A stretch of 64,000 nt of DNA. Source: Candidatus Omnitrophota bacterium. Lineage in GTDB: Bacteria > Omnitrophota > Gorgyraeia > 2-01-FULL-45-10. The translations under genes and the position numbers were made by a program. The notes beneath the pieces are model-generated. The model did no database searches. It saw only the letters and a program-made list of their open reading frames with translations, and was not told the DNA's origin. The stretch lies in the NCBI GenBank assembly GCA_020057115.1, contig JAGVGJ010000002.1, positions 857 through 64,856 of the forward strand, in the 5' to 3' direction. Numbering within the stretch: position 1 is the first letter of the stretch; each line of letters opens with the position of its first letter. Below, piece after piece: positions 24,287 to 32,870 of the stretch.

Positions 24287-24826
24287 ATGTATGAAACATT
24301 TGATGCAATGATGGCCAGGCTTTCACCGACACTTAAGCGGATAACGCACAGGATGAACGGCCATTTCACGTTCTTCAGTGATGACGACCTCTACCAGGAG
24401 GCTGTGATGCACCTCTGGATAGATTATCAGCATGACGTTTTGGGCGATAAGACGGATAGCTATATCCTCCAAGGGTGTTATTATTATCTGAAGAATTATC
24501 TTCGCATGACGCTTGATAAGGCAAAGATGGTAAGCCTATATAAGCTCATAGACGAAGACGACTGCACACTTGAAGATGTTATTACGATAAAAGGTAGGAC
24601 CGCCATGGATGCAGCGGAAGAGAGAATCATCGTTGATGACGCCACGCTTAATGGATTGACCGATAGGGAGAAAGAGGTGCTCACGCTCTCCATGGAGGGA
24701 TCAACAGTTCGCGAAATAGGTGAAAAACTTGGGATCTCTCATGTTATGGTAGTAAAATTAAGGGGCAAGTTGAAAGAGAAATACGCCAAGCTGAAGGGCG
24801 AACTGAAGAACGAGGTTACCAAATAG
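24287..24826 (+). CDS. Sigma-70-family-like protein (region 2 and region 4 HTH).
   Basis: C-terminal HTH (LTDREKEVLTLSMEGSTVREIGEKLGISHVMVVKL). Its last codons contain the GTTACCAAAT half of the conserved nitrogen box. Confidence 0.4.
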   Translation: MYETFDAMMARLSPTLKRITHRMNGHFTFFSDDDLYQEAVMHLWIDYQHDVLGDKTDSYILQGCYYYLKNYLRMTLDKAKMVSLYKLIDEDDCTLEDVITIKGRTAMDAAEERIIVDDATLNGLTDREKEVLTLSMEGSTVREIGEKLGISHVMVVKLRGKLKEKYAKLKGELKNEVTK

Positions 24827-24887
24827 CGCATATCTTTACTTGTATAGTTGTAAAAGCTGTAAAACACATTGTTGTGTAGCAAACACA

Positions 24888-24920
24888 GGCGTTCGTAGAT
24901 GAGAACGCCATATTTATTTA
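24888..24920 (+). terminator. Intrinsic terminator-like hairpin (GGCGTTC / GAACGCC) with a weak U-tract; first of two in tandem.
   Basis: Read from the sequence. Its 5' arm is part of the conserved AACAnnGGCGTTC motif. Confidence 0.45.
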
Positions 24921-24927
24921 GACGGTG

Positions 24928-24970
24928 ACGTCTTTCAATTCCATCGATGGATGAAAGACGTTTTTTATTT
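24928..24970 (+). terminator. Strong intrinsic terminator (ACGTCTTTCA / TGAAAGACGT, inner TCCATCGATGGA palindrome, T6).
   Basis: Read from the sequence. Confidence 0.6.
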
Positions 24971-24995
24971 ATAGTAATAAAAAAAGGGGCGTGAT

Positions 24996-25757
24996 ATGCG
25001 GGAACTTATAAACAGGATAATAATATCTAGCTTGGCGATAATGCTATCGTGCTTGGCGGTGAATGAGGCGCATTCAACGGCTTCCACGCACATATGGGCG
25101 CCATCTACTGACACTCAGGACTGGAAAACCGGACATGTCACTGCAGACATATATGTACCTGTAGAGACAAATCGCGATGGATCTAGGGCTCGAACGATCA
25201 CGGACGAGGGGCTAGAATTCGGTTTATTGCCGTTCAACAAGCTGAGGGCGGAAGCAGGTTTTGACTTTAAGACAGGATATGGCGACCTGGACAGCTGGCC
25301 AATGTACTTTAACGGAAAGCTCGCTATACCGGAAGACTCGTACGGCAAATTCTTCCCCGCAATAGCGATCGGCGTATATGACGTGGGAACAAGAAATGCG
25401 AAGACCAATTTTGATGTCTTCTATATAAAAGCGGCAAAGACCATTAAAGTGAAGGACCTTAACCTCGGCAGATTCTCTTTGGGATACTTCTGGGGCAACA
25501 ATGAACTTCTCCTTAATAAAGACGGCGCCAGGGACAATGAGGGCGTCTTCTGGGCCTGGGAGAGGACTATGACAGAGATAAACGACAAGCTGTGGGTCTG
25601 CATCGAATACCAGGCAACCGAATCTATCTATGGCGCATTCAACCTGGGCGGCTCATGGCAGTTTACGAAGAATATCTCTGTTCTCGGAGGTTATCAGTTT
25701 TATAATAACAAGAATTACGCCGATACATTCACTGTACAAGTAGACATAAACTTTTAA
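24996..25757 (+). CDS. Putative outer-membrane beta-barrel porin-like protein encoded directly upstream of amt.
   Basis: Signal peptide, alternating amphipathic strands, C-terminal ...VDINF with terminal Phe. Confidence 0.4.
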   Translation: MRELINRIIISSLAIMLSCLAVNEAHSTASTHIWAPSTDTQDWKTGHVTADIYVPVETNRDGSRARTITDEGLEFGLLPFNKLRAEAGFDFKTGYGDLDSWPMYFNGKLAIPEDSYGKFFPAIAIGVYDVGTRNAKTNFDVFYIKAAKTIKVKDLNLGRFSLGYFWGNNELLLNKDGARDNEGVFWAWERTMTEINDKLWVCIEYQATESIYGAFNLGGSWQFTKNISVLGGYQFYNNKNYADTFTVQVDINF

Positions 25758-25769
25758 CATGAAAGGAGA

Positions 25770-27014
25770 GTGGTTCAAATGATAAATTCTGGTGATGTTG
25801 CCTGGATCTTAGTGTCAACGGCGCTTGTCATGATGATGACGGCTCCGGGCTTGGCGTTCTTTTACGGCGGCCTGGTGAGGAGAAAGAACGTGCTCGCAAC
25901 AATGATGCAATCGTTCTTTGTGTTGTGTCTGATAAGCATTCAATGGATATTGTGGGGTTACAGCCTGGCGTTCGGGCCTGACAAGGGGCATCTTATAGGA
26001 AGCCTTGCATGGTTCGGTTTAAAGGGCGTGGGAATGGCCCCTAACCCTGATTATGCCTCTACGATACCGCATCTCTTATTTATGGCATACCAGATGATGT
26101 TCGCGGTCATCACGCCCGGGCTTATCACGGGAGCTTTTGCCGAAAGGATGAAATTCTCCGGCTACGTGATATTTACCTTATTATGGGCAACGCTCGTCTA
26201 TGACCCTGTTTGCCACTGGGTGTGGGGTATGGGTGGCTGGTTAAGAAATATGGGCGCGCTCGATTTCGCCGGGGGCACGGTCGTCCATGTCTCATCCGGA
26301 ATATCAGCTCTTGTATGCGCCTTATATTTAGGTAAGAGGCGCGGCTATGGCAAAGAACCGATGCCTCCTCACAACCTTCCTCTTACGATACTGGGTGCCT
26401 CATTATTATGGTTCGGATGGTTCGGGTTTAATGCCGGCAGCGCGCTAGGGGCAAATGAGCTTGCAGTATCTGCATTTATTGCGACAAATACAGCCGCAGC
26501 TGCAGCAGCTCTTACGTGGATGTTCATAGAATGGAAGGCCATAGGTAAACCCACGATCCTAGGCGGTGCAACAGGCGCAGTTGCAGGCCTCGTCGCCATA
26601 ACGCCAGCGGCAGGTTTCGTAACGCCGCTCTCCTCCATACTTATAGGCGTAGCGGTCGCATTCGTCTGCTACGCGGCGGTCGCCATAATAAAGCTCAAGC
26701 TTGCGTATGATGATTCGCTCGACGCATTCGGCGTCCACGGTGTAGGAGGAACCCTTGGCGCGCTCCTTACAGGACTATTCGCTCAAAAGATAGTGAATCC
26801 GGCAGGCAACAACGGGCTATTCTTCGGCAATCCGGCGCAGTTCGCGATACAAGCAACCGGTGTACTGGCCACCATGGCCTATTCAATAGTAGTGACTTTC
26901 ATCCTATTGAAAGCCATTGATGCCCTTATAGGCATCAGGGTCACTGATGAGGATGAGACTGTCGGCCTCGACATAACGCAACATGAAGAGTCGGCGTATA
27001 CGCTCTTAGACTAA
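25770..27014 (+). CDS. amt: Ammonium transporter (Amt family), copy 1.
   Basis: Canonical Amt motifs (DFAGGTVVH, GAxLxG). 414 aa. Confidence 0.9.
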   Translation: MVQMINSGDVAWILVSTALVMMMTAPGLAFFYGGLVRRKNVLATMMQSFFVLCLISIQWILWGYSLAFGPDKGHLIGSLAWFGLKGVGMAPNPDYASTIPHLLFMAYQMMFAVITPGLITGAFAERMKFSGYVIFTLLWATLVYDPVCHWVWGMGGWLRNMGALDFAGGTVVHVSSGISALVCALYLGKRRGYGKEPMPPHNLPLTILGASLLWFGWFGFNAGSALGANELAVSAFIATNTAAAAAALTWMFIEWKAIGKPTILGGATGAVAGLVAITPAAGFVTPLSSILIGVAVAFVCYAAVAIIKLKLAYDDSLDAFGVHGVGGTLGALLTGLFAQKIVNPAGNNGLFFGNPAQFAIQATGVLATMAYSIVVTFILLKAIDALIGIRVTDEDETVGLDITQHEESAYTLLD

Positions 27015-27031
27015 TATAAGGAGAATGATGC

Positions 27032-27373
27032 ATGAAACTCGTGATCGCAATTATACAGCCTCACAAACTGGAAGATGTCCTGCATGAGCTGGATACCAGA
27101 GAGATCTATCTTAGGACCGTCTCGAATGTCCTGGGCTGCGGCAGGCAGAAGGGGCGCACAGAAGTATATAGAGGAAGGAAAGAGACCGGCAACCTCCTCA
27201 AGAAGGTCCGCCTCGAGATCGCCGTGAACGAAAAATTCGTCACTCCTACGATCGAGGCCATAGCAAAAGGAGCCCGCACGGGAAACATAGGAGACGGTAA
27301 GATATTCGTTGTGGACCTTGGCCAATGCATAAGGATAAGGACCGGCGAAACCGACGGGGAAGCGATCGGATAA
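27032..27373 (+). CDS. glnK: Nitrogen regulatory protein P-II (GlnK-type, amt-linked), copy 1.
   Basis: 113 aa. T-loop RGRKETGNL (where Tyr-51 would be uridylylated in E. coli, this protein has Glu; YRG is present in the preceding turn). Confidence 0.9.
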
Positions 27374-27418
27374 TAATTAGTGGTTACCAAAAGACTACGC
27401 ATTTTACTTGTATATCAA

Positions 27419-27492
27419 ACACAGCGTAGTGTAGTGAAAAGAACAGAGGCGTTCAATTTGGTTTTATGACTAAATTGGGCGCCTCTTTTTTT
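27419..27492 (+). promoter_or_regulatory. ANTAR-type dual hexaloop hairpin element overlapping an intrinsic terminator (leader of amt-2).
   Basis: Hairpin 1 is ACAC-AGCGTA-GTGT and hairpin 2 is GAAC-AGAGGC-GTTC; both loops have A at position 1 and G at position 4. The terminator is AGAGGCG...CGCCTC followed by T7, and its 5' arm overlaps hairpin 2. Confidence 0.55.
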
Positions 27493-27544
27493 GCTCAATT
27501 TTTACTCAATTGAATACGCAGTTGAATAAAAAGAAAGGGATAAT

Positions 27545-28780
27545 ATGATCAATTCCGGAGATACTGCCTGGATCTTAGTATCGACCGCTCTTGTCATGCT
27601 GATGACGATACCCGGTTTAGCGCTATTTTACGGAGGCTTGGTCCGCAGGAAGAATGTCCTTGCCACCATGATGCAGTCATTCTTCGTATTGTGCCTGATA
27701 AGCATTCAGTGGGTACTTTTCGGCTATACGCTTTCATTCGGTCCGGACAAGGGACATATAATAGGTAACCTTGCATGGCTCGGCTTAAAAGGGGTAAGTA
27801 TCATCCCCAACGCCGATTACGCGCCCACGATACCGCACATCCTGTTCATGGCCTATCAGATGATGTTCGCGGTGATCACTCCCGGGCTCATAACAGGCGC
27901 GTTCGCTGAGAGGATGAAATTCTCAAGCTATGTGGCCTTTACCTTATTATGGGCAACACTCGTCTATAACCCCGTATGCCACTGGGTCTGGGGGACCGGA
28001 GGATGGCTCAAAACTCACGGAGTGCTCGATTTTGCAGGAGGGATAGTCGTCCACGTCACTTCGGGATTCTCGGCCCTTGCTTGCGCGCTCATCATGGGGA
28101 AGAGGCGCGGTTATGGCCGCGAGCCTATGCCGCCGCATAACCTGCCCCTTACAATAATAGGCGCAGGCCTCTTGTGGTTCGGATGGTTCGGATTTAATGC
28201 GGGCAGCGCTCTTGCGGCAAATGGCATTGCCGCAACAACATTTGTGGTAACCAATACTGCGGCTGCGGCTGCCGGGCTCACCTGGATGCTTATCGAGTGG
28301 AAAATAACGGGAAAACCCACCATACTGGGCGGGGCTACGGGGGCGGTCGCGGGACTTGCCACAATAACCCCGGCTTCAGGATTTGTCTCGCCGCTCTCCG
28401 CCATTTTAATAGGCATAGCCGCTTCCTCGATATGCTATACAGCCGTGGCTATTATCAAGCTAAAGTTCGCTTATGACGATTCATTGGATGCTTTCGGCGT
28501 CCACGGGATCGGAGGCGCGGTAGGCACGTTATCGGTAGGCCTCTTCGCGCAGAAACTTATCAACCCTTCAGGGAACGACGGGTTATTCTTCGGCAATGCT
28601 TCGCTATTCATCACGCAGGCGCTCGGAGTAATTGCGGTCATAGCTTATTCGGTAGGCCTCACGCTCATCATTTTGAAAGTCCTCGATGCGACTATAGGCT
28701 TAAGGGTGACGGATGAGGAGGAGGTTGTAGGTTTAGATATAACGCAGCATGAGGAGTCGGCGTATACTTTATTGGATTAA
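27545..28780 (+). CDS. amt: Ammonium transporter (Amt family), copy 2.
   Basis: Paralogue of copy 1 with a conserved core. 411 aa. Confidence 0.9.
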   Translation: MINSGDTAWILVSTALVMLMTIPGLALFYGGLVRRKNVLATMMQSFFVLCLISIQWVLFGYTLSFGPDKGHIIGNLAWLGLKGVSIIPNADYAPTIPHILFMAYQMMFAVITPGLITGAFAERMKFSSYVAFTLLWATLVYNPVCHWVWGTGGWLKTHGVLDFAGGIVVHVTSGFSALACALIMGKRRGYGREPMPPHNLPLTIIGAGLLWFGWFGFNAGSALAANGIAATTFVVTNTAAAAAGLTWMLIEWKITGKPTILGGATGAVAGLATITPASGFVSPLSAILIGIAASSICYTAVAIIKLKFAYDDSLDAFGVHGIGGAVGTLSVGLFAQKLINPSGNDGLFFGNASLFITQALGVIAVIAYSVGLTLIILKVLDATIGLRVTDEEEVVGLDITQHEESAYTLLD

Positions 28781-28799
28781 TATATAAGGAGGATCGAAT

Positions 28800-29141
28800 A
28801 TGAAACTCGTGACCGCAATTATACAACCCCACAAGCTCGAAGACGTATTACAGGAATTGGAAAAAGCAGAGATACATCTAAAGACCGTCTCGAATGCCCT
28901 CGGATGCGGAAGGCAGAAAGGCCGCACAGAGGTATATCGCGGCAGGAAAGAGACTGGGAACCTGCTAAAAAAGATACGCCTTGAGATCGCAGTAAATGAC
29001 CAGTTCGTGCAGCAAACCATCGACGCCATCGTGAAAGGGGCCAGAACAGGCAATATCGGCGATGGGAAGATATTCGTCGTAGCGCTTGCTGAATGCGTAA
29101 GGATACGAACAGGCGAAAAAGGAGGCCAGGCGATAGGTTAG
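28800..29141 (+). CDS. glnK: Nitrogen regulatory protein P-II, copy 2.
   Basis: 113 aa, same motifs as copy 1. Confidence 0.9.
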   Translation: MKLVTAIIQPHKLEDVLQELEKAEIHLKTVSNALGCGRQKGRTEVYRGRKETGNLLKKIRLEIAVNDQFVQQTIDAIVKGARTGNIGDGKIFVVALAECVRIRTGEKGGQAIG

Positions 29142-29217
29142 TAGAACCTTTGGCTTGTTACCAAAAATATGTATTTTTTACTTGTAATATCAGATGAAAA
29201 GTTGTATAGTATTTCTA

Positions 29218-32480: not shown

Positions 32481-32870
32481 GTGCTAAAGATGATAACCAT
32501 CTTGATAGATGACAACGAAAACAAGTTGAAAGAGCTGCTGAGCGGATTTTTGCGCAGAGAAGGATATGTCACCCAGCCGGACGAGAATGACCCTAGCATA
32601 ATAAAAGTCGTGCCGAAGGAGATCCACGACGGCAAATTCTCCTTAAAGAACAAGATCGTCGAGCTAGAAAACTCTTTATATTATCAGAAAAAGGGTGTAT
32701 TATATAAATCCATTTTAGAAAATGTCGAGAAGCCCATGATAGAGCATGCTCTTGAGCGCACCGAAGGAAATCAGCTCAAGGCGGCAAAGATGCTGGGCAT
32801 GAACCGGAATACGATACGCGCAAAGATAAAGAAGCTCGGCATAGACTTAACGAGATGGAAGGACCATTAA
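32481..32870 (+). CDS. Small Fis-type HTH (HTH_8) DNA-binding protein resembling an NtrC C-terminus.
   Basis: C-terminal QLKAAKMLGMNRNTIRAKIKKLGI. Stop is 1 nt before the gltB start. Confidence 0.5.
   Translation: MLKMITILIDDNENKLKELLSGFLRREGYVTQPDENDPSIIKVVPKEIHDGKFSLKNKIVELENSLYYQKKGVLYKSILENVEKPMIEHALERTEGNQLKAAKMLGMNRNTIRAKIKKLGIDLTRWKDH

Follow-up and report, generated by a model that had tools for sequence, protein, structure and literature searches.

What reads the bipartite box that recurs in front of three nitrogen operon leaders at this locus, a sigma factor or a dedicated transcription factor? Within the window (the whole 64-kb stretch of DNA analysed), the sequence GTTACCAAAW-N10-TTTACTTGTA occurs in exactly three copies, all on the plus strand and free of mismatches (Table 1). 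No further copies were found in the window at up to two mismatches, half-by-half searches gave no additional paired copy in the 64 kb, and dinucleotide-preserving shuffles produced no box matches (0/100). The repeated box with identical spacing, as described in the initial annotation, was confirmed, and the 10 nt between the halves are indeed unrelated among the three window copies. Conservation does not reach the 3′ extension that had been proposed, (T/A)ATA; the sequences there are TAGT, TATC and ATAT, and the information content of box positions 31–35 is low over 76 homologous sites.

Table 1. Coordinates of the box copies and the adjoining gene, in window positions.
Feature	Positions	Strand	Remarks
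Listed part	24287–26826	+	
Sigma-like ORF	24287–24826		3′ end overlapped by box copy 1; protein of 179 aa
Box copy 1	24815–24844	+	0 mismatches
Box copy 2	27383–27412	+	0 mismatches
Box copy 3	29157–29186	+	0 mismatches

All three copies lie close to the end of the preceding gene. Copy 1 takes in the final three codons of the sigma-like ORF together with its stop (GTT ACC AAA TAG), in agreement with the overlap noted originally, while copies 2 and 3 start 9 nt past the glnK stop at 27373 and 15 nt past the second glnK stop at 29141, respectively. The first hairpins begin at box positions 50, 37 and 62 (copies 1–3), at distances of 19, 6 and 31 nt from the final base of the box. The placement of the box 40–60 nt upstream of the ANTAR hairpins, as first given, holds only when the distance is counted from the box start and fails when it is counted from the box end.

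The initial annotation saw no match to sigma70 spacing in the element, and this proved to be wrong. Read as hexamers, the box is TTACCA, a spacer of exactly 17 nt, and CTTGTA, which is the geometry of a −35/−10 promoter, and 17 nt is the canonical spacer of the sigma-70 family. A purine is found 6 nt past the −10 half. The ANTAR leader hairpins begin 7–13 nt past this half, too close for a further promoter to fit in between. The protein encoded next to copy 1 matches the sigma-70/ECF superfamily model from end to end, and its predicted fold matches those of sigma factors.

The box is not confined to this locus. Among 80 genome loci retrieved via the adjacent sigma-like protein, GTTACC-N17-ACTTGTA was found (n = 77), along with a version with N16 (n = 4), and over the range of spacings 6–31 the two halves were never paired in any further way. 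All box copies at these loci are on the strand of the sigma gene. The pair of box and sigma gene precedes genes for ammonium uptake and for glutamine/glutamate synthesis in Omnitrophota, Syntrophorhabdales and other uncultured lineages. A metagenome scan, made from DNA only, gave 137 boxes, 106 of them with a scorable downstream ORF; 97 of these 106 precede glutamine synthetase (type I or III), Amt, PII, putative porins, the gltB operon or an amino-acid permease. Of 120 box-selected metagenome stretches, 50 also carry a sigma homologue.

Recent duplication of amt-glnK, already argued against in the initial annotation, does not explain the similarity of the copies, since conservation of the box extends across phyla. 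The other of the two readings offered was that direct TTAC half-sites are bound by a dedicated transcription factor. TTAC is common to both halves, but it is all that they share, and each half has distinct flanks of its own that are nearly invariant, so this reading is not supported. Nor is there support for the Fis-HTH gene at 32481, suggested as a candidate regulator of the box. Elsewhere this gene is one of the targets of the box, standing first in gltB operons that the box drives, and it is present in 25/120 of the box-selected stretches, half the number for the sigma homologue. The evidence favours the alternative-sigma promoter and the sigma-like gene of Table 1.

We consider it probable that an undescribed sigma factor of the σ70 family is dedicated to nitrogen assimilation, that the box is its cognate promoter, and that GAF-ANTAR antitermination adds a second layer. 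In such an arrangement, the small alternative sigma factor encoded by the neighbouring gene would read the box as a promoter, and antitermination by GAF-ANTAR would act as a further control. No publication describing nitrogen-gene control of this kind was found. As the initial annotation correctly pointed out, the box is distinct from the sites of sigma-54, NtcA and TnrA/GlnR.
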